Of a stretch of DNA of 64,000 bases, positions 23,534 through 55,735 are shown in pieces. Origin of the DNA: Escherichia coli (GTDB taxonomy: Bacteria > Pseudomonadota > Gammaproteobacteria > Enterobacterales > Enterobacteriaceae); the NCBI RefSeq assembly GCF_016903815.1, contig NZ_CP069973.1. One strand, 5' to 3'. The notes under the pieces were generated by a model. It saw only the letters and a program-made list of their open reading frames with translations. It did no database searches and had not been told where the DNA came from. The position numbers and the translations under genes are program-made. The first letter of the stretch is position 1, and every line of letters starts with the position of its first letter.

Positions 23534-23546
23534 AGTTAAGACGCTC
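23534..23546. repeat. attL core (AGTTAAGACGCTC)
   Basis: Identical 13-mer to attR; reverse complement encodes E-R-L-N-stop, a displaced copy of the rplS 3' end. Confidence 0.7.
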
Positions 23547-24699: not shown

Positions 24700-25038
24700 T
24701 TATTCGCAAAGTGCTGTTGCGGCATCCATTACAGGATCCAAAGGAATTTTTACACCTGCATACTCTGGACTGTCTTTCCAAACAGCATCAATATTGCTCC
24801 CCTCAAGCTTTCCAGACTTTACTCCATCAATAGCAAAACCATTTAATGGGTATCGGTCATCAGTTGCTTTGTCGTATACAAAGGCATACTTACCGTTAAC
24901 GCAAGACACCGTAGCTTTTTCAAAAGTTAACGGCCAATCCTCACCAAACTTAGCGCCATCTAAATCCTGTGTTTTTTCAGCGGCTAAGGAGCCAAAAGAA
25001 AAGGTAAGAAGCATAGCTAAAAAGAGTTTACGTTTCAT
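24700..25038 (-). CDS. small secreted/periplasmic protein of unknown function (moron between cI and int)
   Basis: Start chosen at MKRKLFLAMLLTFSFGSLAA (cleavable signal peptide); two Cys residues; no recognised domain. Confidence 0.55.
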   Translation of the reverse strand: MKRKLFLAMLLTFSFGSLAAEKTQDLDGAKFGEDWPLTFEKATVSCVNGKYAFVYDKATDDRYPLNGFAIDGVKSGKLEGSNIDAVWKDSPEYAGVKIPLDPVMDAATALCE

Positions 25039-27969: not shown

Positions 27970-30192
27970 TTGGCTGTTCAATTCGCTTATCCGTGGAACG
28001 TCCCACGGTCGGCAATCTCCAGCCCATACCTTACTTATGAGCAACAGCATCGCCGCGACCGTATGTTCGCGGCTTTGCTGCATGCAAAAAAGGTGCTTTC
28101 TCTCCAGCCCGACTGCGTGCGGTTAGATGTTTATCGCACTGCTGCGGTGCTGGAGCAAAATCAGGGTAGTCAACGAGCCAATGCATTTTTAATCAGCTTC
28201 TGCAAAAAGGCATTGCCGCGTCTTGAACTGGTCGCAAAAAAATACGAATGCGCTGGTATCAACAGCAAGGTATCAACCGCTGTTTTTGGAAGTCATTTTG
28301 ATACTCAGCAAATGCAATATCTGTCGTCACGCATGGTTAATATGGTCGCCCGATATAACCGTCTCCCGGACATGTCGCGCGCTGATGTTGACCTGTTGGC
28401 CGCTGATATTGCTAATTTCATTCGTGGTGAACTTGCCAACATTAATGACCACGGATTCGGCGAGCTTAAAACGCTGTACACCTGGTATATTCGTGCTGGC
28501 TTTATTTCCCTCCAATTCAACGTTATCCCACCACATTGGGAGCGGGTTGAAAAAAAATATGTCGGTGCGGATGAAATCGCACCGGCTATCGCCAAAATGT
28601 TTAACGATGGGTGGTGGCGCGGTCGTTTGCGCCGTGTAGCAGCTACGTGGCGCGAACACCTGCAAATTGCAGTCGGCAACGTCAGTAAGAAAAAAAACAC
28701 TTACGCGAGTAAAAACTGCGTGACTGACTGGCGTGAACAAAAGCGCCGCACTCGTGAATTTCTCAAAGGTCTGGATCTCGAAGACGAAGACGGCAACCGT
28801 ATCAGCCTAATTGAAAAATATGATGGCTCAGTTGCTAACCCTGCGATTCGCCGCTGTGAGCTCATGACCCGCATTCGTGGGTTTGAAAACATCTGTAATG
28901 AGCTCGGTTATGTCGGTGAGTTTTACACTCTAACCGCGCCGTCAAAATATCACGCCACGACTAAAGCCGGTTACCGTAACAGCAAATGGAGCGGTGCCAG
29001 CCCGGCTGACACGCAAAACTATCTAACCGGTATCTGGGCGCGTATCCGTGCCAAACTACATCGGGAAGATGTCCGTATTTTCGGTATTCGTGTCGCCGAG
29101 CCCCATCACGACGGCACTCCACACTGGCACATGCTGATGTTCATGCTGCCGGAAGATGTTGAATATGTTCGCTCCATCGTCCGTAAATACGCATGGAAAG
29201 AAGACCGCCACGAACTGAAAAGCGATAAATCCAAAAAAGCACGTTTCCACGCGGAGTCCATTGACCCGGAGAAAGGCAGCGCAACCGGCTATGTTGCTAA
29301 ATACATTTCAAAAAATATCGACGGTTATGCTCTCGATGGTGAAACCGATGATGAAAGCGGTGAGCTGCTGAAAGAGACAGCCCCCGCCGTTTCAGCATGG
29401 GCTGCGCGCTGGCACATCCGTCAGTTTCAGTTTATTGGTGGTGCGCCGGTGACGGTTTACCGTGAGTTGCGTCGCCTCGCTGATACCGAAACCGCGCACG
29501 GTCTGAGCGTTGAGTTTGCCGCCGTCCATGATGCCGCCGACGCTGGTGACTGGGCTGGTTATGTTAATGCTCAGGGTGGGCCGTTTGTCCGTCGCGATGA
29601 TTTACAGGTGCGCACACTGTATGAACCGCGTACCGAGCTTAATCAGTACGGTGAGGAAACGGTATGTATTAAGGGGGTCTACGATTCCTCCATAGGTGCA
29701 GGAAGCCCGATTTTAACCCGGCTCACTCAGTGGAAGATTGTTCCGAAGCGTGCTGTTGATTTGGCCGTTGACCTTCAGGACGGCAAAGCCGTCCCTCGGA
29801 GTTCTGTCAATAACTGTACGGGAAGCGAAAGCGATCCACCGATACTGGATTTAACAAAACCACTGAGTCGGCGTGAAAGACGAGAATTGACCAACCGACT
29901 CAGGAAGCAAAAGCCAGCAGCACGGCGAAAATTCATCCACGGAACGGATGAGCAAAACGCAGCTATAGCTAAAACTATCGATGAGATACATCTGACAACC
30001 GGCATTAATATCAGCCGGGGCGAAGCCCTGCACCTGATGGCCGGTGGTAAAAGTTGTTTTGATGGTAAATGGCTACGCGGAACGGCCAAAGGAGAAATAT
30101 TTTCCGCAGCACCATCGCATGAAGCTAAAGCTCGGAAAATCCTTAATCGTGTTGCGGCGATGGCTGAAGCATCAAAACCAATACATGAGTAA
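27970..30192 (+). CDS. replication initiation endonuclease (P2 gpA-like rolling-circle Rep)
   Basis: 740-aa product with HxH metal motif (HWHMLMF) and active-site Tyr context (YVAKYISK). Confidence 0.9.
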   Translation: MAVQFAYPWNVPRSAISSPYLTYEQQHRRDRMFAALLHAKKVLSLQPDCVRLDVYRTAAVLEQNQGSQRANAFLISFCKKALPRLELVAKKYECAGINSKVSTAVFGSHFDTQQMQYLSSRMVNMVARYNRLPDMSRADVDLLAADIANFIRGELANINDHGFGELKTLYTWYIRAGFISLQFNVIPPHWERVEKKYVGADEIAPAIAKMFNDGWWRGRLRRVAATWREHLQIAVGNVSKKKNTYASKNCVTDWREQKRRTREFLKGLDLEDEDGNRISLIEKYDGSVANPAIRRCELMTRIRGFENICNELGYVGEFYTLTAPSKYHATTKAGYRNSKWSGASPADTQNYLTGIWARIRAKLHREDVRIFGIRVAEPHHDGTPHWHMLMFMLPEDVEYVRSIVRKYAWKEDRHELKSDKSKKARFHAESIDPEKGSATGYVAKYISKNIDGYALDGETDDESGELLKETAPAVSAWAARWHIRQFQFIGGAPVTVYRELRRLADTETAHGLSVEFAAVHDAADAGDWAGYVNAQGGPFVRRDDLQVRTLYEPRTELNQYGEETVCIKGVYDSSIGAGSPILTRLTQWKIVPKRAVDLAVDLQDGKAVPRSSVNNCTGSESDPPILDLTKPLSRRERRELTNRLRKQKPAARRKFIHGTDEQNAAIAKTIDEIHLTTGINISRGEALHLMAGGKSCFDGKWLRGTAKGEIFSAAPSHEAKARKILNRVAAMAEASKPIHE

Positions 30193-30266
30193 TTCATATC
30201 CATATCATGCACATACAGCAATCGCTCTATTCGTTTTTTTTCTTCCCATCTTTTGCCAATACGTGC

Positions 30267-30286
30267 TACTGTATAAATATACAGTA
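30267..30286 (+). promoter_or_regulatory. LexA operator (SOS box) upstream of tum/dinI-like pair
   Basis: TACTGTATAAATATACAGTA, near-perfect CTGT-N8-ACAG palindrome, followed by GGGAGGG SD and ATG at 30306. Confidence 0.75.
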
Positions 30287-30305
30287 ACCCTATGGGAGGG
30301 ACTTC

Positions 30306-30488
30306 ATGGTTGGCGAACATTTCAGCCGAACGCAGCAAAAGTGGGCTTGTGTGCAATTTATTGCCGAGGTATCTCTGATTGCAAACTGCAAGCCATCAGA
30401 CTTAAAGCTCGCGCTCACTCTCATTGCAGACCTAGCAAACAGCGAAAATAACGAAACCGAAGATGATAATTTTTATAAGGCTGATTAG
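30306..30488 (+). CDS. small protein, candidate Tum-like antirepressor module
   Basis: 60-aa ORF directly downstream of the LexA box; function inferred from position only. Confidence 0.45.
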   Translation: MVGEHFSRTQQKWACVQFIAEVSLIANCKPSDLKLALTLIADLANSENNETEDDNFYKAD

Positions 30489-30491
30489 ATT

Positions 30492-30722
30492 ATGAGAATC
30501 AATATCACGTTGGATAAAGAGCAAAAATTAGGGCAACAGATCATTGATGCTTTTCAAAATGAAATAACACATCGAGTACAATGCGTTTTTCCTGCAACAA
30601 AAGTTAACGTTAAGAAAGGGTCAATGACTGGTGTAGAGGCTATCGGATTCGATAAAGAGGCGGACAGAGAAACATTAGGCAGCATATTACAAGAGATTTG
30701 GGAAGACGATAGCTGGCGTTAA
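30492..30722 (+). CDS. DinI-family protein
   Basis: 76-aa product with DinI-like C-terminus (…LGSILQEIWEDDSWR). Confidence 0.75.
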   Translation: MRINITLDKEQKLGQQIIDAFQNEITHRVQCVFPATKVNVKKGSMTGVEAIGFDKEADRETLGSILQEIWEDDSWR

Positions 30723-30761
30723 ACATAATAACCGTGCTGGCGCAAAAACTAGCTTTTTGCG

Positions 30762-30795
30762 TCGGCGGGGTTGAGTAACGAGCCCACGAGGCTTA
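30762..30795 (+). repeat. direct repeat copy 1 (GGCGGGGTTGAGTAACGAGCCCACGAGGC)
   Basis: About 80 percent identical to copy 2 at 31165..31198; follows a hairpin. Confidence 0.5.
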
Positions 30796-30921
30796 AGTCC
30801 TGCCTTTCAAAATTTCTCAATGTGCTATTGATGACACGCCCATGATTAATGAGGCATGACCTGAGATGGTTTTATAGTGGCGTTTTGACGGCACTGATTA
30901 AAATTCATTGAGGGTGATAAT

Positions 30922-31131
30922 ATGCATCGACTACCAGGTGAAATACCGCAACACAAAACTAAAAGCATCAAACTGATGGCCATCGTTCATCGTTTGCAGC
31001 AGATAATGGTCAATGAGAATTTGACACCCGCAGAGCTGGTCGGGTGTGCCGAAATAGTCAGGGATAATTACGGCAAGCTGGATAGCATCAGCAGGTCGAA
31101 ACAATACGCACCACCACCACGTCGACGATAG
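30922..31131 (+). CDS. hypothetical small protein (69 aa)
   Basis: Good SD (GAGGGTGA) 6 nt upstream of ATG; flanked by the two direct repeats. Confidence 0.4.
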   Translation: MHRLPGEIPQHKTKSIKLMAIVHRLQQIMVNENLTPAELVGCAEIVRDNYGKLDSISRSKQYAPPPRRR

Positions 31132-31164
31132 CAAACGCCGCCGGTTCTGAAACTCGCTTTCAGT

Positions 31165-31198
31165 ACTGGCGGGGGTTGAACAACGAGCACCGCGAGGC
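31165..31198 (+). repeat. direct repeat copy 2 (GGCGGGGGTTGAACAACGAGCACCGCGAGGC)
   Basis: See copy 1; lies in the convergent gap between the 69-aa ORF and the 313-aa gene. Confidence 0.5.
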
Positions 31199-31205
31199 GT
31201 TAGCA

Positions 31206-32147
31206 TTAATTTATTTTTAATGAATGGTAATCTCGTGAGTTGACCGAAGATTTGAGATAACTGCAATCATTAACCGACAGTATTGCCGCTAATAGGCGAC
31301 ATACCAGTGCCTGCATTTGCAGCAATATATCGTTACCATATTGACTGTTGTTAACACTTGAGAAACCAAGCGGTTGACCAAAAAAAATAGCCTCATGAAA
31401 ATTATCATTGCGGATGCCAGAAATGTTTTTTTTACCTGACACCCATGTGGGGATTGATAACCCATAAATTTTGCACATCCACTTTAATCGCTTGTAATGA
31501 TTTGGCGGTTTTTTATCAGGAGCCTTGTCATGCTCAGCCCACGACAAAGCAAAGCACCCATCAAGTGCCATGTAAAGGTACTGGAATTTTTCAAAAGAAA
31601 GGTATTGTGGGTTTTGAGATAAGAATAGTGCATGCACCACTGCCGCAATTCTTTTGGGGGAGTGCGCATCCTTATGTTTGCCATTTATATAATTAAGAGC
31701 CAGTTCTATGACTTCTTTTTCAGAGCATCCAACGAGAATAAAGTCGGTTAACTTAGTGGGCTTGATAGTGGTTGCATCTAAAAAACCAGCGTCAGTGGTT
31801 GTCAATCTTATTCCCTTGAAAAAAGAAAGGCACCACACAATAAAGTTGAGAGTTTCTAACGAGGATGTATTTTTTAATTTTAGTGTGTGCGTTTTGGGCA
31901 TACTGAATACTCGGTGACTATAAGGCATTGTGGATATGCCACCATTAAGGTTATATACATCTTGGTTTCCAGGGTATATCCAACCTTTCACAACGTTTTT
32001 ATCATTATTAACACGCTCCACTTTCTCATTGAGACCAGGTAAAGTAAGCAAAGAAAATTGTTCAGTCTCAATGTTAACTTCTACTGGATAGTATCCAAAC
32101 TCCGACATAATCTCATTGGGTTGCTGTTCGTCAACTTCACCTTGCAT
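31206..32147 (-). CDS. accessory protein (313 aa) with Rx4H motif; candidate HEPN-like abortive-infection protein
   Basis: A+T-rich ORF in the region between replication gene A and cos; motif GIRNDNFHEA (R-x4-H); no other recognised domain. Confidence 0.65.
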   Translation of the reverse strand: MQGEVDEQQPNEIMSEFGYYPVEVNIETEQFSLLTLPGLNEKVERVNNDKNVVKGWIYPGNQDVYNLNGGISTMPYSHRVFSMPKTHTLKLKNTSSLETLNFIVWCLSFFKGIRLTTTDAGFLDATTIKPTKLTDFILVGCSEKEVIELALNYINGKHKDAHSPKRIAAVVHALFLSQNPQYLSFEKFQYLYMALDGCFALSWAEHDKAPDKKPPNHYKRLKWMCKIYGLSIPTWVSGKKNISGIRNDNFHEAIFFGQPLGFSSVNNSQYGNDILLQMQALVCRLLAAILSVNDCSYLKSSVNSRDYHSLKIN

Positions 32148-32384
32148 ATCTTTCTCCGTTCAAAAATAGGCTCGATAATTATCGAGAGGCTATCATGTTT
32201 GGAAAGAATCAATGTCCGTAATTTTTGTAAATTTAAGGTGATTTATCAATAAATAAGCTGTGCATGCAACAGGTGCATGGTTCTGCATGCGCCGGGGTTA
32301 CCCGTTTTGTACGTGCGCCGCAAGAGCTGGCGGGGATCCAGAGTGGTCATGCAACTGCATTAAAACCGCCCCATAAAGCGGGCA

Positions 32385-32403
32385 GGCGTGGCGGGGAAAG
32401 CAT
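32385..32403. other. candidate cos site (cohesive end)
   Basis: GGCGTGGCGGGGAAAGCAT closely resembles my recollection of the P2 cohesive end (GGCGAGGCGGGGAAAGCAC); embedded in a GC-rich non-coding stretch near Q. Confidence 0.55.
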
Positions 32404-32622
32404 TGCGCGCCAGCAGTGATGCGTAATAATAAAAATTATCCTCTGAGCGCGTCGTGATGGCGCTGTCGTGGTCGCTGCTGGTTCGTTGGTGGTCGGGTGT
32501 GTTCGTGCGCGTGAGACGCATCTGATGCGTGATGGTGGTGTGCATGGAAAAGCCACCAGGAGCAGCGGCTTTACAGGAGTGGCAGGATTCAAACTGCTAA
32601 TTATGTTTCTACTATGATTAAA

Positions 32623-33627
32623 CTAATTTACATGTATGTAGAGTTCACCGTCGCCAGACCAATCGGGACACTCTAAAACAAGCCCAAACTGCTTGAATAT
32701 TTCATCAATGATTATTGTTATCTCCCGAAAATCACCAAAACCTGTAATGTGCTGGTCATTAAACTTCCCATAAAGATTCTGAAAAGCAATGCCTAATTCT
32801 GATAATTGATATCTTATCTTTGAGTTGGATAGTGTAAGGGATAGCTTTGGATCGTATTCTTTAATATTGATGTTTAGAGAATGGACATAACCCATCGCAT
32901 AAGCATAAGAGTTGATGATTAGCCTGATACGTTTTTTTACTTCGAGATACATGTCATTCAGAGAAATATTACCGTACTTATAACCCCAGATGAGTTTTTC
33001 AATCTCGTCAGATACTTCATTTACAACAGTGTCAAGATTCTCTAAAAATAAATCGATAGTTTCTTGAGGGGCAGACCCCGAAGACATGTAATTAGCGAGA
33101 TATTCAGACCATGCACGCGTGGCTGAGATAAGAAGCGCGCTACCATACTCGTTGACTGTAAAGTTTTGGGCTAAGCATGTTAGTAAGTTTTTTTCATGTA
33201 CGTGCACTAATTCATGGTGAATGCGATGGATGACTGCGAGGTATCCTTCTTCTTTCAGTTTTAAGAAGCTACCATCATTGAAAAGCTCAACAAAAAAATC
33301 AATCGATAGCACAAGGGTATATTCTTCACATAGCCCATCATTGCCAATTTTTGTTACTAACTGCCCGACGGCTGCGCCCTGTTTGCTATTGGTAAATGAA
33401 CTAGGGGATTTGTGTTGGTAAGAGGATGTTACCTTTTGAAGAGCTTCACTGAAGTTATAGGAAACAATCACGCATTTTAATTTGGAGATATCAAGATTGA
33501 GATTTTTTGTTAAAGCTCGGATAGCTTCTAGTGTGAAATTACCGATATTATTTGCTTCTTGCTCAGTAGCGAAACCTTCGAGGGTTATTTTAAAATCAGT
33601 TTCCAAAATATTAATCTCCGCGCCCAT
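32623..33627 (-). CDS. accessory protein (334 aa) with HExxH motif; candidate zincin-like metallopeptidase
   Basis: A+T-rich ORF between cos and portal gene Q; motif HRIHHELVHVHE with Glu about 23 residues downstream. Confidence 0.65.
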   Translation of the reverse strand: MGAEINILETDFKITLEGFATEQEANNIGNFTLEAIRALTKNLNLDISKLKCVIVSYNFSEALQKVTSSYQHKSPSSFTNSKQGAAVGQLVTKIGNDGLCEEYTLVLSIDFFVELFNDGSFLKLKEEGYLAVIHRIHHELVHVHEKNLLTCLAQNFTVNEYGSALLISATRAWSEYLANYMSSGSAPQETIDLFLENLDTVVNEVSDEIEKLIWGYKYGNISLNDMYLEVKKRIRLIINSYAYAMGYVHSLNINIKEYDPKLSLTLSNSKIRYQLSELGIAFQNLYGKFNDQHITGFGDFREITIIIDEIFKQFGLVLECPDWSGDGELYIHVN

Positions 33628-33704
33628 TGTTTTGATATTCGATGCACTATAGCTTTCGCAGATTGCATCTTCAATAATGAGCGCAGAGATTGTGGCGGCC
33701 TAAG

Positions 33705-34751
33705 TTATTCTGGGTTGTCGAGGGTGTACTCTTTGAATCTGATGACCTCCATGCCGAGCCAGTCATTTACCTCCCTGAACCGGTCCTGTAGCGGCGACAG
33801 CTCGTTGCGCACAAATACCTTTGCCACCTTCTCAACATCACCGAGTGAACCGATATTCTCGGGCTTGCCGCCCATGAGCTGGAACGGTACGCGGTGCGCG
33901 TCCATCAGATCGGCGGCACTGGCCTTCTTGATGTTGAAAAAGTCATCCTTTGTGGCGACCTCGCTCAGTGGCACGATTTTGATGCCGTCCGGTTTTCCGC
34001 CGGGAGCGTAGAAAAACAGGTTCTTAAAGTTGCCGAGCCCTTTTGAGTTGCGCATCGCCTCGCGCAGCGATTCGACGTCGGTCGCGCTCTGCGCCGGGTC
34101 AGTCACATACATGATGTAACCCGCGTGCGCGCCGTTCTGATAATACTTGCGGCGGAACAGCGTCGCGGATTCATTCAGCCAGGCGGAATTTAGCGCGCTG
34201 AGATATTCGGGCAGGCCGTAAATCTCCTGATTAATGTCGGGCTCCAGCAGGTGAAACACGGTATCAGGCGCGAACTCGTGCGGCTGGGTGAAGTTTTCCA
34301 CAAACCAGAAAATCGAATCGTCGACTCCGCGTCGGGTGTATTTGGCTGGCGAGGCCAGCAGTTTGATTAACTGGCCGGTGACGCTGTGGCGCTGCTCAAG
34401 AAAGGCGTTACCGAACACCAGATAATCGAGCGCAAAGCGGCTGAAATCCTGACGGGATAACAACGGGTGCGGAATGTAGGTGCTCGCGAGCACGTTACGC
34501 TTAACATAAATTGGCGAGCTGTGATGCACGGCAGAGCGCAGGCTCTTTGCCAGCCCTGAGAAGCTGACCGGCGGCTCGTACCATTTGCCGTTACTGATGC
34601 ACTCGACGTAATCCAGAATGTCGCGCTTATCGAGCACCGGCACCGGCTCGCCGAAGGTGAACGCTGTCGTTTTTGGCGGTGCGCTGGCGGTCAGTTGTTG
34701 TGGTTTGCTGGCCTTTTGTGCGTTGGCTTTACGGGATTTTTGTTTACCCAT
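33705..34751 (-). CDS. portal protein (P2 gpQ-like)
   Basis: 348-aa product, size and position match P2 Q; adjacent to terminase. Confidence 0.9.
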   Translation of the reverse strand: MGKQKSRKANAQKASKPQQLTASAPPKTTAFTFGEPVPVLDKRDILDYVECISNGKWYEPPVSFSGLAKSLRSAVHHSSPIYVKRNVLASTYIPHPLLSRQDFSRFALDYLVFGNAFLEQRHSVTGQLIKLLASPAKYTRRGVDDSIFWFVENFTQPHEFAPDTVFHLLEPDINQEIYGLPEYLSALNSAWLNESATLFRRKYYQNGAHAGYIMYVTDPAQSATDVESLREAMRNSKGLGNFKNLFFYAPGGKPDGIKIVPLSEVATKDDFFNIKKASAADLMDAHRVPFQLMGGKPENIGSLGDVEKVAKVFVRNELSPLQDRFREVNDWLGMEVIRFKEYTLDNPE

Positions 34752-34752
34752 T

Positions 34753-36522
34753 TTAGTTGAACTCCAGAATAGATTTAGGCTGCATGCCGCTACCGGCAGA
34801 AAGCGGTTCGTTTAACAGGGCGTGCATGGTCGCCCATGCGATATCGGCGTGGCTGGCTTCCTCGGTGCGGCTGGCCTCATAGGTGGCGCTGCGCCCGCTG
34901 CTGGTCATGGTTTTGCGGATGGACATAAACGACTGCGTGACGTCGGTTGCTCCGGCGTCGTACTCCAGACAGCCACGGCGAATGGTGTCTTTCGCCTTGA
35001 GTACCATTGCGGTTTTCATTTCAGGTGTGTAACGGATGCCGCGTGCCGCCGGGTAAAATGAGCGCACCAGCTGGAACACGCCGAGACCGAGGCCGGTTGC
35101 GTCAATGCCGATGTATTCGACGTTGTATTTCTCGGTCAGCTTGCGGATGCCCTCTGCCTGTGCTGCAAAATCCATGCCCTTCCACTGGTGGCGCTCCAGC
35201 ATGCGGAACTTGCCACCAGAGACCACCGGCGGCGCGAGCACGACGCACCCGGCACTGTCGCCGGTGTGTGACGGGTCGTAGCCAATCCAGACAGGACGAG
35301 AGCCGAACGGATGGTCGGCGAACGGGGCAAAGTCCTCCCATTCCTCCATTACATCGACCATGCAGCGCTGCAGCTCCTCGAACGGGAATACCGACGCTTT
35401 ATCGTCGACAAACTCGCACATAAACAGGTTCTTAAAGTCCTCATCACTGTTTTCGCGTTTGAGCTGGTCGAGGTCGAACAGGGTGCAGCCACCCGCAAGG
35501 GCGTCCTCAATGGTGACAATCTGCCGCCACTGGCCATCGTCGCAGAGCTGGCCACCGGCGAGCGCGCTGTGACTGATGTCGATTTCGATGCGGTCGGCAA
35601 TCCGGCTGCGCCCCTTGTTGAACAGCTCGCCAGACCAGAAGGGGTAAGCGCCGTGCGCCAGCGTGGAAGGTGTCGAAAAATAGGTCGAGCGCAGGTGCTT
35701 TTGCGAGGCCATGCCCGAGGCGACTTTGCGCAGTTTCTGAAAATTCGGGATCCAGAATATTTCATCGACATACAGATCGCCGTTATGGCTCTGCGCGGTG
35801 TTGGAATTGGTACCGAGAAAAATCAGTTTTGCGCCGTTGTTACCGATGACAATCGGGTCGCCAGTCAGGTCAACGTCGACCAGTCGCGCAAACTGGATGA
35901 TGTATTCGCGGAACACGTAAGCCTGCGTTTTACTGGCTGATAAAAATATCTGGTTATGGCCGGTTTTGAGTGCGCGCAGCAGTGCCTCGCGGGAGAAATA
36001 GAATGTCGCGCCAATCTGGCGGGATTTGAGAATGTCACGAATACGGTGCTCCAGTCCTGCGCGGTACCACTGCAACTGGTACTCGAAAGACTGGTCGAAA
36101 AATAATTCCTCTAGTTTATCGATAGCCTCGTCGCTGAAAAAATTCTTTTTCGGCTTTTTGCGCTCCCCTTTGTTGCGGTTGGCGACGTTGGGGTTAAGGT
36201 CGGCTTCGTTGCCGGTCTGGCTGTAGCGGTTGACTCGCGCCAACCGTTCAATCTGCCGTCCGAGCAGGTCAATCTCTTTGAAATCACCCCCTGTCTTTTG
36301 CGGCTTGGCGATGAGCTGAATCAGCCTAGCCTCAAGGCTGCTTTCAACGCGGGAAATCGGCGCGATGCCGTCCCAGCCGTCACGCTGCTTCCAGCTCTGC
36401 ACGGTCGGGCGCTTGACCTGCAGCATTTCGGCAATCTGTGGCACGGAAAAACCCTGCCAGTAAAGCAGCGATGCCTGCCGTCGCGGGTCATGCAACAAGG
36501 TTGTATCGGTGGAAATGGTCAT
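34753..36522 (-). CDS. terminase large (ATPase) subunit (P2 gpP-like)
   Basis: 589-aa product; divergent from capsid operon. Confidence 0.9.
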   Translation of the reverse strand: MTISTDTTLLHDPRRQASLLYWQGFSVPQIAEMLQVKRPTVQSWKQRDGWDGIAPISRVESSLEARLIQLIAKPQKTGGDFKEIDLLGRQIERLARVNRYSQTGNEADLNPNVANRNKGERKKPKKNFFSDEAIDKLEELFFDQSFEYQLQWYRAGLEHRIRDILKSRQIGATFYFSREALLRALKTGHNQIFLSASKTQAYVFREYIIQFARLVDVDLTGDPIVIGNNGAKLIFLGTNSNTAQSHNGDLYVDEIFWIPNFQKLRKVASGMASQKHLRSTYFSTPSTLAHGAYPFWSGELFNKGRSRIADRIEIDISHSALAGGQLCDDGQWRQIVTIEDALAGGCTLFDLDQLKRENSDEDFKNLFMCEFVDDKASVFPFEELQRCMVDVMEEWEDFAPFADHPFGSRPVWIGYDPSHTGDSAGCVVLAPPVVSGGKFRMLERHQWKGMDFAAQAEGIRKLTEKYNVEYIGIDATGLGLGVFQLVRSFYPAARGIRYTPEMKTAMVLKAKDTIRRGCLEYDAGATDVTQSFMSIRKTMTSSGRSATYEASRTEEASHADIAWATMHALLNEPLSAGSGMQPKSILEFN

Positions 36523-38690: not shown

Positions 38691-39440
38691 ATGACGAGCC
38701 CCGCACAGCGTCACATGATGCGGGTCTCGGCCTCTCAAGCCGCGCAGCGGGAACAAGCCCCGCTGCGCCATGCAACCGCCTACGAGCAGATGCTGGTAAA
38801 GCTGGCCGATGACCGCCGCACGTTGAAAACCATCCGTTCAAACGAACTGAAAGCCGCGAAAAAGCGTGAGCTGCTGCCGTTCTATGCGCCGTGGGTCGCC
38901 GGTGTGCTGGCTGATGGCCGTGGTGCGCAGGATGACATTCTGATGACAGTCATGCTGTGGCGTCTCGATGCCGGTGATATCGCTGGCGCGCTGGAAATTG
39001 CGCCATACGCGCTGAAGCACGGCCTCACCTCTGACTATCGCCGCACGCCACCTTACATGCTGGTTGAGGAGGTGGCGATTGCCGCGCTGCGCCTGCGCGA
39101 TGCCGGTGAGCCTGTCGACCTCGCATTACTGCTGACCACCCTTAGCCTGACCGACGGCGCTGACGTTCCCGATATGGTGCGCGCTCGACTGCATAAGGTG
39201 ACCGGTCTAACCCTGCGCGATGCCGGTCAGAGCGCCGAAGCACTGGCACAGTTTCAGCGCGCGATGCAGCTCGACCGCAATGCCGGTGTGCGCAAAGAGA
39301 TTGAGCGACTGGAGCGGGCATTGAAGCCTAAGCCCGATGCCGCGCCCCGTAAAACGACTAAACCGCGCACGCGCAAACCTGCCACCAAACCGGCGGCAAA
39401 GCGCGGGCGTCCACCAAAGGCGGTAAAAACCGCCGGTTAA
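38691..39440 (+). CDS. terminase small/endonuclease subunit (P2 gpM-like)
   Basis: Start chosen at MTSPAQRHMM after N stop; track ORF extended upstream in overlap with N. Confidence 0.8.
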   Translation: MTSPAQRHMMRVSASQAAQREQAPLRHATAYEQMLVKLADDRRTLKTIRSNELKAAKKRELLPFYAPWVAGVLADGRGAQDDILMTVMLWRLDAGDIAGALEIAPYALKHGLTSDYRRTPPYMLVEEVAIAALRLRDAGEPVDLALLLTTLSLTDGADVPDMVRARLHKVTGLTLRDAGQSAEALAQFQRAMQLDRNAGVRKEIERLERALKPKPDAAPRKTTKPRTRKPATKPAAKRGRPPKAVKTAG

Positions 39441-42519: not shown

Positions 42520-42563
42520 AGGTGGGCGTGCCCACTGAGTTGGGTTCGATTCCCTAACCTCGT
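42520..42563 (+). other. tRNA 3'-end-like fragment (T-arm-like GGGTTCGATTCCC), not a complete tRNA
   Basis: T-loop consensus TTCGATT with flanking G/C stem; upstream part cannot be folded into a cloverleaf. Confidence 0.3.
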
Positions 42564-43390
42564 ATTATTCCTCTCGATATTTTTATTGCTGGGTTTTCCT
42601 TTCTTATTTCATTTTTAATTTGCTCATCACAAATTAAATAATCTATGTTTTTTGCTTTAACAAGTTCTTTAACGCTAATGTTAATTGAATTTAATAGATT
42701 TGCATTCCGCATGTTAGCCCCTTCATAAGTAACGGATTTAAAATCACATCCTTTTAATATGCAGCTTTTCATTTCGCTATCTGTAAAATACCCCCCTTCA
42801 AAACTGCAGTTTTCGAAAGTGACATTTTGAAAACATGTATTAAATGCCTTAATATTTCTTAGCTTGCAGTTTTTGAATTTAACACTCTTAACTCTATTGC
42901 CTGTAATATTTAGAGCTTGAATTGTGCAATTATCGAAAGAACAATCTCTAATGTATGATTCGCTCATATTCAAGCCGGTTAAGTCAGCGTCTTTAAAATG
43001 TAAATATTTGATAGTGGACATTTTATCAAGTTCAATCCTTGGAACTTGAATGTTATATATTCCTTTAGCATTTAACTGACGTATGATTTTTATCTTCATA
43101 ATATTCAGTTCTGCAGAAGAATGCTTTGCCAGATTTTCAAGATCTTCAATTAGTTCGTGAATAGCATCTTTATTTTGCCTTTTATTTTCAAAATAGTAAA
43201 GAATCACACCCAAAACAAGAAAGTCTAAAATTGAAGAATTTGCATTAACAAGAAAATTCTCCATGAATTTTGAGTTGTAGTTATCATTATAAACAGACAA
43301 CCCTACTATAAGCCCGGAGTATAAAAAAAAGATACCTATAATATATTTCATATTGCTTATTGTACGCCTAAAAGATGAAGTTCTTTTCAT
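42554..43390 (-). CDS. membrane-anchored pentapeptide-repeat protein (accessory/moron)
   Basis: Very A+T-rich ORF; start chosen at MKRTSSF (AGGT 5 nt upstream); two N-terminal hydrophobic segments, then tandem 5-residue repeats (…DADLTGLNMSESYIRDCSFDNCTIQALNITGN…). Confidence 0.7.
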   Translation of the reverse strand: MKRTSSFRRTISNMKYIIGIFFLYSGLIVGLSVYNDNYNSKFMENFLVNANSSILDFLVLGVILYYFENKRQNKDAIHELIEDLENLAKHSSAELNIMKIKIIRQLNAKGIYNIQVPRIELDKMSTIKYLHFKDADLTGLNMSESYIRDCSFDNCTIQALNITGNRVKSVKFKNCKLRNIKAFNTCFQNVTFENCSFEGGYFTDSEMKSCILKGCDFKSVTYEGANMRNANLLNSINISVKELVKAKNIDYLICDEQIKNEIRKENPAIKISRGIIRG

Positions 43391-47814: not shown

Positions 47815-48165
47815 TCAGCTTCCTATTGCGAACCAGCGAAAGACATAAACCCCAGATGTTGCATCACAGCGCATCAGGAAATTTGTTTTTGTAAAACTTC
47901 CTGCCGCTCCCGCAATAACCTTTCCACCACCATTGTCGTAAGAGACTACAACCTGATGGCAAATGTTCGGAAAAGAAACCGAGAAGTTAATTGCATTTCC
48001 CGTATTACCTGTCGCACCCACTCCGGCTGTTGCTGATCCCCATTGAATGATTAAGCCGCTAGGTAGTTTTTGATATCCAGCAGCACCCGTTACAGACAAA
48101 AATGAATTTATATCTGGAATCTGGTTTTCCCCTGTTCCGACATCCCGTTTCGCTGCTTCTCCCAA
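47815..48165 (-). CDS. alternative tail fibre C-terminal segment (H'), silent in this orientation
   Basis: Homologous to H C-terminus (GEAAKR.VG.G.NQIPD…YQKLPSGLIIQWG); has no promoter or start of its own. Confidence 0.6.
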   Translation of the reverse strand: MGEAAKRDVGTGENQIPDINSFLSVTGAAGYQKLPSGLIIQWGSATAGVGATGNTGNAINFSVSFPNICHQVVVSYDNGGGKVIAGAAGSFTKTNFLMRCDATSGVYVFRWFAIGS

Positions 48166-48236
48166 ACCAACCTTTTAGAAAATGCAGATATTCCGTTCAG
48201 CTGGCATGTTTCCGACTTTTTACCGGGTTATTTCTC

Positions 48237-48483
48237 ATGTTTATCGGTTATGTACGTGTATCAACAAATGACCAGAACACCGCATTACAGCGAAATGAAC
48301 TGGAGTGCGCAGGATGTGAGCTGATTTTCGAAGATAAAATCAGCGGCAAAACATCAATCAGACTGGCCGGGGCTAAAGAGGTTACTCAGAACCTTGTCAG
48401 AGGGCGATACGCTTGTGGTCTGGAAACTGGATCGCCTCGGGTATCTCAACGCTATACAAACAATTTCCCGCATCCGTTGCTGA
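48237..48483 (+). pseudogene. Hin/Gin/Pin-family serine DNA invertase, frameshifted and 3'-truncated remnant
   Basis: N-terminus MFIGYVRVSTNDQNTALQRNELECAGCELIFEDKISGK matches the invertase catalytic region; homology continues in another frame (…PGLKRLLRTLSEGDTLVVWKLDRLG) after an A4 run at 48349..48352, then is lost before a stop at 48481. Confidence 0.75.

Positions 48484-55384: not shown

Positions 55385-55735
<351 letters not shown>

Follow-up and report, generated by a model that had tools for sequence, protein, structure and literature searches.

The DNA analysed here, referred to as the window, is a stretch of 64,000 nucleotides from Escherichia coli, identical to the chromosome of strain 222, in which PGAP annotates a complete P2-family prophage gene set between yfiB and rplS. 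The packaging, head, tail, lysis, replication and regulatory genes are all annotated as intact, and the early region is of the 186 type, with CI, a Cro/Apl-like gene, CII, Fil, B, A and a LexA-controlled Tum-like/DinI pair (PGAP). Replication gene A (27970-30192, + strand; Pfam Phage_GPA) forms the left boundary of the published A-Q hotspot. The portal gene, which is the homologue of P2 Q and 186 W, occupies 33705-34751 on the - strand (Pfam Phage_portal; 94% identical to the 186 portal), and the gene of the terminase large subunit, homologous to P2 P, lies next to it at 34753-36522 on the same strand (Pfam Terminase_6N/6C/5; 99% identical to 186). The small, endonuclease subunit of the terminase, homologous to P2 M and 186 R, was found in the PGAP annotation at 38691-39440 on the + strand and is 91% identical to 186 R.

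Regarding the ends of the prophage, a 13-nt direct repeat, AGTTAAGACGCTC, occurs at 23534-23546 and at 55387-55399, and it is the sole string of 12 nt or more that the prophage borders share. The repeat is a candidate att core, its first copy being immediately to the left of int and its second one at the 3' end of rplS. Measured from this repeat the prophage unit has ~31.85 kb, between the 30.6 kb of 186 and the 33.6 kb of P2; the ends, placed by this single 13-nt repeat, are the probable ones. In the early region a perfect LexA box, CTGTATAAATATACAG, at 30269-30284 precedes a 60-aa ORF (30306-30488) and a separate 76-aa DinI-like ORF (30492-30722). Tum, the SOS-induced antirepressor of 186, is a single 146-aa protein, and since the 76-aa ORF matches DinI, the function looks split into two genes here. 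Other accessory DNA is present in the prophage as well. A gene for a pentapeptide-repeat protein (42554-43390, - strand, GC 0.30), with the S-like virion-morphogenesis gene on one side and the baseplate gene V on the other, occupies as cargo a further known variable slot of the P2 family, and a DUF2511 gene (24700-25038, - strand) lies between the integrase and CI, a slot that recent surveys describe as a minor hotspot. Finally, a frameshifted recombinase/invertase pseudogene at ~48084-48483 stands beside oppositely oriented tail-fibre assembly genes, and together they look like a decayed invertible host-range segment.

Between A and Q, at 32385-32403 on the + strand, we find the 19-nt sequence GGCGTGGCGGGGAAAGCAT, which the first-pass annotation had described as a P2-like cohesive end with two differences. 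These two differences are exact, because the annotated cohesive end of P2 is GGCGAGGCGGGGAAAGCAC, to which the window is identical at 17 of the 19 positions, the mismatches being A5T and C19T. Nevertheless, the site is not merely P2-like: it is identical over 19/19 positions to the annotated cos of phage 186 (U32222, 1-19) and over 19/19 to that of PSP3. The 19-mer is unique in the window even when up to three mismatches are allowed, and shuffled sequences predicted 0.01 chance matches.

In order to map the ends of the GenBank genomes, the region 32150-32625 was compared by megablast with 50,697 phage records. The first base of the linear genomes of 186, PSP3, SEN1 and EtG coincides with base 236 of the query, that is, with 32385, and in the records of 186, PSP3 and EtG this base is annotated as the top-strand cut. 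By analogy with 186, the top-strand cut would fall 5' of 32385, and the bottom strand would be nicked after 32403. One record, ON470592 (vB_EcoM-613R3), contains the identical phage, taken from work on the prophages of clinical isolates; we considered it as a genome defined by its virion ends and rejected it, since it is a prophage of clinical-isolate genomes and the start of the record does not lie at cos. As for the variation of the 19-mer, eight variants occur among 78 portal loci (L008-L087), and the commonest, GGCGAGGCGGGGATAGCAC, occurs in 36 loci and differs from both the 186 type (28 loci) and the P2 type (7 loci).

A chance match in GC-rich DNA, or the cos of a P4-type satellite, would be another way to explain such a 19-mer, and P4 does share the P2-type cos core (PMC9122126). 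The perfect match with 0.01 expected by chance, the ~320 bp of flanking homology to 186, the position among phage genes, with A on one side, Q on the other and no gene of P4 in the neighbourhood, and the fact that the 19-mer is of the 186 type rather than the P2/P4 type leave practically no room for either. Both were rejected on the identity, the 186 flanks, the genome ends and the gene context. The site is thus supported as cos by all the in silico tests that are possible: it matches an experimentally defined cohesive end, genome ends fall at 32385, its core is conserved and the cognate terminase genes are present. Regarded in this light it is an ordinary, canonical cos of the 186 type.

The similarity to 186 extends beyond the 19-mer, since the circular junction of 186, obtained, like that of P2, by joining the genome ends, aligns from ~32258 to ~32575 and covers the 19-mer with both its arms as well as the annotated terminator tW. 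We refer to the sequence common to the 186-type phages, 32256-32571, as the cos block; it is delimited by homology breakpoints and by the alignment to 186 and P2, includes TGCATG motifs, extends through the left arm as far as the late terminator, and has a GC content of 0.58. For a conservation profile, 77 cos regions of related viral contigs (74 of them distinct) were anchored on the 19-mer. The majority base has a frequency of 0.9-1.0 at 32349-32413 and of ~0.5 outside on both sides, so the conserved core has ~65 bp, in which the 19-mer is preceded by 36 nt from the right end and followed by ~10 nt from the left end. This core aligns also to 186 and P2, and it corresponds to the ~55-bp P2/P4 cos core of Ziermann and Calendar (1990), as that work is cited in PMC5694545. 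In the right arm there are TGCATG motifs at 32274-32279 and 32284-32289 and TGCAT(G) within 32349-32360, more than 90% conserved in the relatives. These repeats may bind the terminase; in Pseudomonas phage phiCTX repeats named R4-R6 are annotated around the cos.

The surroundings of the site had been called GC-rich and non-coding, and this holds. The 186 and P2 records have no CDS annotated across cos, and two short hypothetical-protein ORFs that cover the core here, at 32264-32419 (+) and 32360-32545 (-), are on opposite strands in two public records that conflict with each other, the RefSeq (PGAP) annotation and ON470592. These calls across cos are probably spurious, and placing the site is useful for annotation. 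No match was found in an Rfam scan of 30000-34000, so neither the cos block nor the border elements described below belong to a known RNA family.

The left arm ends at a hairpin of 9 bp with a short run of U behind it, 32546-32572 on the - strand (-11.5 kcal/mol), which also scored as terminator-like in a sequence scan. It aligns to the annotated tW of 186 at 164-187 and is the equivalent of the late-operon terminator tW/tQ. Regarding the position of cos, the first-pass annotation had placed it where it is expected, near Q. The order A, cos, tW-like hairpin, Q and P is indeed kept, but the distance is not: cos lies 1301 nt from the Q stop codon, against ~176 nt in 186 and P2, because a 1.13-kb cassette with a 334-aa gene has been inserted between them. 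The left arm is therefore 1.1 kb away from Q, a separation that might affect packaging, although 14 relatives tolerate inserts at the same place.

The borders of the inserted DNA were determined by BLASTN of 30700-34000 against 80 portal-gene loci, which gave sharp and recurrent breakpoints. Conserved sequence ends at 31204 and is followed by a cassette of 1.05 kb with a 313-aa gene (31205-32255), by the cos block, and by the 334-aa cassette (32572-33704); the sequence is conserved again from 33705, which is the last base of the portal stop codon. The breakpoints at 32256 and at 32558/32571 recur in many relatives. The two cassettes have a GC content of 0.377 and 0.378, compared with 0.56-0.57 in Q and P and 0.52 in the whole prophage. 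Both genes are absent from 186, from P2 and from most relatives, and an empty-site relative (L025) has ~85 bp instead of the 313-aa cassette and ~20 bp instead of the 334-aa cassette. In 186 the ~176 nt from cos to the portal stop contain no gene, and on the other side of cos that phage has orf97 on the + strand, whereas here there are a 69-aa ORF and, on the - strand, the 313-aa gene. The whole arrangement is present in only 16 of 5426 complete E. coli genomes, in several of them with 99.8-100% identity. The absence from relatives, the low GC content and the sharp breakpoints all agree with the earlier proposal that cargo has accumulated on both sides of cos.

Locating cos to the base orients the prophage on the virion map of P2 and 186. 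The terminase would recognise the core together with the flanking arm sequences and would nick it with a stagger of 19 nt, so that virion DNA would run from 32385 (the left end, toward the portal gene) to 32403/32384 (the right end, on the side of the replication gene). This would make the prophage map a circular permutation of the virion map, with the two virion ends adjacent in the chromosome and forming together the known A-Q cargo hotspot, which cos splits into a right-end and a left-end compartment. As the position of cos is fixed, under the map convention of P2 and 186 the gene at the right genome end is the 313-aa one (31206-32147, - strand) and that at the left end is the 334-aa one (32623-33627, - strand), exactly as had been suggested.

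We then have to consider that the site might be a relic, conserved in sequence in a prophage that yields virions no longer. The pseudogene of the invertase in the tail-fibre region would fit this, as would the derivation of ON470592 from genome sequences of clinical isolates. Against it, the genes for all the phage functions named above are annotated as intact, the terminase is nearly identical to that of 186, the cos core carries no mutation, the LexA box of the SOS operon is intact and the arrangement persists almost unchanged in several genomes. We consider a relic improbable, and we are confident in reading 32385-32403 as the cos of a 186-type prophage (Eganvirus-like, P2 family) of ~31.9 kb that appears to be intact, is inserted between yfiB and rplS in E. 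coli and has its A-Q hotspot filled on both sides of cos. The closest known systems are 186 (U32222) and PSP3 (Eganvirus), which have the same 19-nt end in the same orientation to the portal, homologous arms and tW, and terminase proteins 91-99% identical.

Rousset et al. 2022 (PMC9122126) had already described the interval from gpA to gpQ as a hotspot adjoining cos, in which 1,650 arrangements occur. Actually, this exact arrangement is found in Table S5A of that work (PMC9122126), as WP_001622301 + WP_001622299 + WP_001622297 + DinI + ..., all of them hypothetical. Our locus has the features of the hotspot, since it lies between gpA and gpQ beside cos, its gene content is variable and its GC content is 0.38. 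It shares with P2 old/tin and with the A-Q hotspot in general (PMC9122126) the same A-portal interval adjoining cos, with variable low-GC cargo that reads away from cos; nevertheless, old and tin of P2 lie wholly on the right-end side, whereas here there is cargo on both. Rousset et al. 2022 (PMC9122126) and later hotspot surveys treat A-Q as one hotspot, unsplit at cos. The left-end slot has precedents too. In phiCTX the ctx gene lies between cosL and Q, that is, a foreign gene occupies the same slot as the 334-aa gene, although ctx is convergent with Q and has its own promoter, while the 334-aa gene runs in the direction of Q and precedes the late terminator; the cos of phiCTX is also different, with 21 nt instead of 19. 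Ralstonia phage phiRSY1 has foreign ORFs between cosL and Q (PMC5694545), and the cosL-Q slot was proposed as a hotspot of foreign genes in the 1990s (1999), as cited in PMC5694545.

Since the A-Q hotspot, ctx in phiCTX and the cosL-Q slot of the 1990s had already been published, the conclusion that cargo lies on both sides of cos is correct but not new, and the cos site and its two-sided layout are otherwise consistent with the textbook and will not surprise a specialist. What goes slightly beyond the literature consulted is the delimitation of two half-hotspots at the level of single bases, the strict fidelity of the cargo families to side and orientation, the placing of the 334-aa protein in an uncatalogued family of gluzincin fold within the late operon, and the probable HEPN-like nature of the 313-aa protein.

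The 313-aa gene of the right-end half is transcribed away from cos, and its ATG and the nick are 238 nt apart, a distance made up of 129 nt of conserved cos arm and 108 nt of AT-rich cassette DNA (32148-32255, - strand), where promoter-like matches at 32249->32221 and 32205->32178 suggest that the 1.05-kb cassette would bring its own promoter region. The other edge of this cassette is marked by a border element of ~65 nt, 31140-31204 on the + strand, which consists of a hairpin and then GGCGGGGGTTGAACAACGAGC...CGAGGCGTTAGC and is present in 34 of the 78 loci and in 186. In all its carriers the element is confined to the A-cos side, and in the empty-site phages it lies ~245 nt from cos. It may serve as an anchor for recombination or as a module boundary resembling a terminator. 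A diverged copy is located at 30736-30800, and the 186 record has an example around 30378; in the SOS operon the element, as a long hairpin followed by GGCGGGGTTGAACAACGAGC...CGAGGCGTTAGC, stands 3' of each + strand gene.

The position of the 313-aa family is very constant. Among 43 viral loci that were fetched with the cargo protein itself, cos was found in 39, and in 34 of these 39 the gene starts 237-239 nt from it, on the A side; this spacing holds in phages whose A proteins are 37-100% identical. One exception (L026/L149, IMGVR_UViG_2871639894_000008) has a homologue interrupted or truncated by ~1.2 kb of extra DNA at the equivalent of 31981/31982, and there the distance to cos is 1628 nt instead of 238.

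The 313-aa family has more than 900 members in Gammaproteobacteria. In 43 sequences, with identities as low as 45%, the motif R246-N247-x3-H251-E252 does not vary; it is an Rx4H of the HEPN type, within the Rx4-6H range, and falls in a loop of low pLDDT in the model. One UniRef name only, 'Apea-like HEPN', was found among the relatives. None of the 43 members matched any Pfam model, those of HEPN included, at E<=0.1, a Foldseek comparison of the model with the PDB gave no significant match, no match was obtained for the beta-rich N-terminal domain of ~140 residues, and a profile search recovered the close family again and no remote members annotated in Pfam. In this the protein differs from the HEPN abortive-infection and toxin proteins (the HEPN domain of AbiA, AbiV, HEPN/MNT toxins, Csm6), which it recalls by its motif. 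We conclude that it is probably HEPN-like in its C-terminal domain. In Pseudomonas aeruginosa a homologue is found as a solitary gene adjoining Gabija.

In the left-end half, the 334-aa gene is on the same strand as Q. PGAP starts it at a TTG at 33606, with a GGAG Shine-Dalgarno sequence 9 nt upstream, and the resulting 327-aa product comes nearer to the length of most homologues, 323-329 aa. According to the alignment with the empty-site relative L025, the 12 nt that abut the Q stop (33693-33704, TGGCGGCCTAAG) are what is left of an arm of the ancestral terminator tQ/tW. The complete but diverged hairpin (32572-32546) comes after the gene. With the remnant beside Q and the full hairpin behind it, the 334-aa gene lies inside the late P-Q transcription unit and upstream of its terminator, and the 1.13-kb cassette has its place between the portal stop codon and the terminator of the late operon. 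Furthermore, a consensus scan of the spacer between Q and the gene revealed a candidate promoter similar to sigma-70, TTGAAG-17-TATAGT, at 33646-33674 on the - strand.

Close relatives of the 334-aa protein number 78, in Enterobacterales, Shewanella and Psychromonas, and an exhaustive profile search gave 355 clusters at 50% identity, nearly all of them single-domain proteins of 310-340 aa. Only five residues are invariant in 64 members at 17-50% identity, H138, E139, H142 and E175 together with the start Met. The first four are the signature of the gluzincins, HExxH and a downstream Glu, which the protein has in common with the metallopeptidases M1, M4, M9 and M30; neither the protein nor its family matched a named peptidase family significantly in Pfam, NCBIfam or the PDB sequences. 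In the AlphaFold model (pLDDT 90.7) it is predicted to have the fold of a zincin catalytic domain, and we describe it as a predicted gluzincin-fold metallopeptidase.

In order to know how the two slots are used in general, we took the 80 closest relatives of the portal gene, in 78 of which cos was located. In 64 of these 78 loci the Q stop and cos are separated by 162-179 nt and in the other 14 by 374-2266 nt, and between cos and A there are 806 to 4449 nt; as the sample consists of the closest portal relatives, the 18% of loci with an insert between Q and cos is only indicative. There are at least seven kinds of Q-cos inserts, all with a GC content of 0.36-0.47. PADLOC identified among them a CBASS cyclase with a 2TM effector, PD-T4-4 A+B, a DUF262 protein similar to NsnA/PD-T4-2A with its partner, and the candidates PDC-S16 and PDC-S59. 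This is worth taking into account when hotspots are mined for defence systems, since the left-end slot, occupied in around one sixth of the sampled relatives by CBASS, PD-T4-4 and others, is usually pooled with the right-end slot. All these inserts are on the strand opposite to Q, except those of the 334-aa family. In 12 viral loci fetched with the 334-aa protein itself, the gene is always directly downstream of Q and on the same strand, and cos follows it after 221-233 nt in the 10 loci where it is detectable. In the two others (L110 and L112), where the portal is only 33-35% identical and no cos core of the P2/186 type was found, the gene still stands behind Q, so the fidelity to the side is given there by the adjacency to Q only. 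The simplest reading of these patterns is that cassettes are exchanged by recombination anchored in the cos block and in the neighbouring conserved sequences.

The orientation of the 334-aa gene raises the question of whether it is defence cargo. It could be an accessory late gene that serves the lytic cycle of the phage itself, by counter-defence, by interference with satellites or by processing host or phage proteins, and that is co-transcribed with P and Q, instead of defence cargo expressed in the lysogen. That it is the sole Q-cos insert on the Q strand, that it precedes the late terminator with the old terminator arm left beside Q, and that slot and orientation are kept in 12/12 viral loci, even with a portal 33-35% identical, would all be expected of such a gene. 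However, its absence from 186, P2 and most relatives makes it dispensable, the sigma-70-like promoter candidate precedes it, and solitary members of the family stand in bacterial defence islands with no phage nearby, beside Wadjet and TerB in one case (L095) and near Mrr and TIR genes in another (L098). We therefore find the accessory late gene unlikely, though less so than a relic cos, and prefer to regard the 334-aa gene as putative defence cargo.

Regarding the function of the cargo, the likeliest one is that of single-gene anti-phage or abortive-infection enzymes, a putative HEPN-like RNase and a putative zinc metallopeptidase. The Lit protease of prophage e14 is an abortive-infection enzyme with an HExxH motif, and the 334-aa protein resembles it in logic. 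PADLOC v2, whose models include Lit, gave no match for either cargo protein nor for the 64 members of the 334-aa family. Searches of both proteins in Pfam, NCBIfam, PADLOC and the PDB sequences, as single sequences, as members of the alignments and as profiles, returned no usable name; PHROGs returned families of unknown function only, and a literature search by the accession numbers of the proteins gave no match. Neither protein is among the systems tested by Rousset et al. 2022 (PMC9122126). Two of those systems, 'Putative HEPN' (pFR103) and 'Peptidase + TM' (pFR104), were compared with our proteins and rejected, because the proteins are unrelated. Both cargo proteins are nevertheless plausible candidates for defence enzymes that act as single genes, and the practical return of the analysis is these two well-delimited candidates with clear catalytic motifs.

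We would also suggest, tentatively and as something that may well turn out otherwise, that the two halves of the cos hotspot are separate slots with rules of their own. The right-end slot would take cassettes that have their own promoter and read away from cos, and the left-end slot mostly cassettes that converge on Q. The 334-aa family would be the exception, captured inside the late P-Q unit and keeping its slot down to ~34% portal identity. Under the same suggestion the 334-aa and 313-aa proteins would be two undescribed single-gene anti-phage (abortive-infection) systems, with the peptidase expressed both in the lysogen and late in the lytic cycle.

Other solitary homologues of the 334-aa gene were observed in Kosakonia sacchari (L090), where the gene lies right after raiA and beside phage tail-fibre genes and a YafO toxin, and in Shewanella (L089), where it adjoins NERD and CSD/Excalibur genes.
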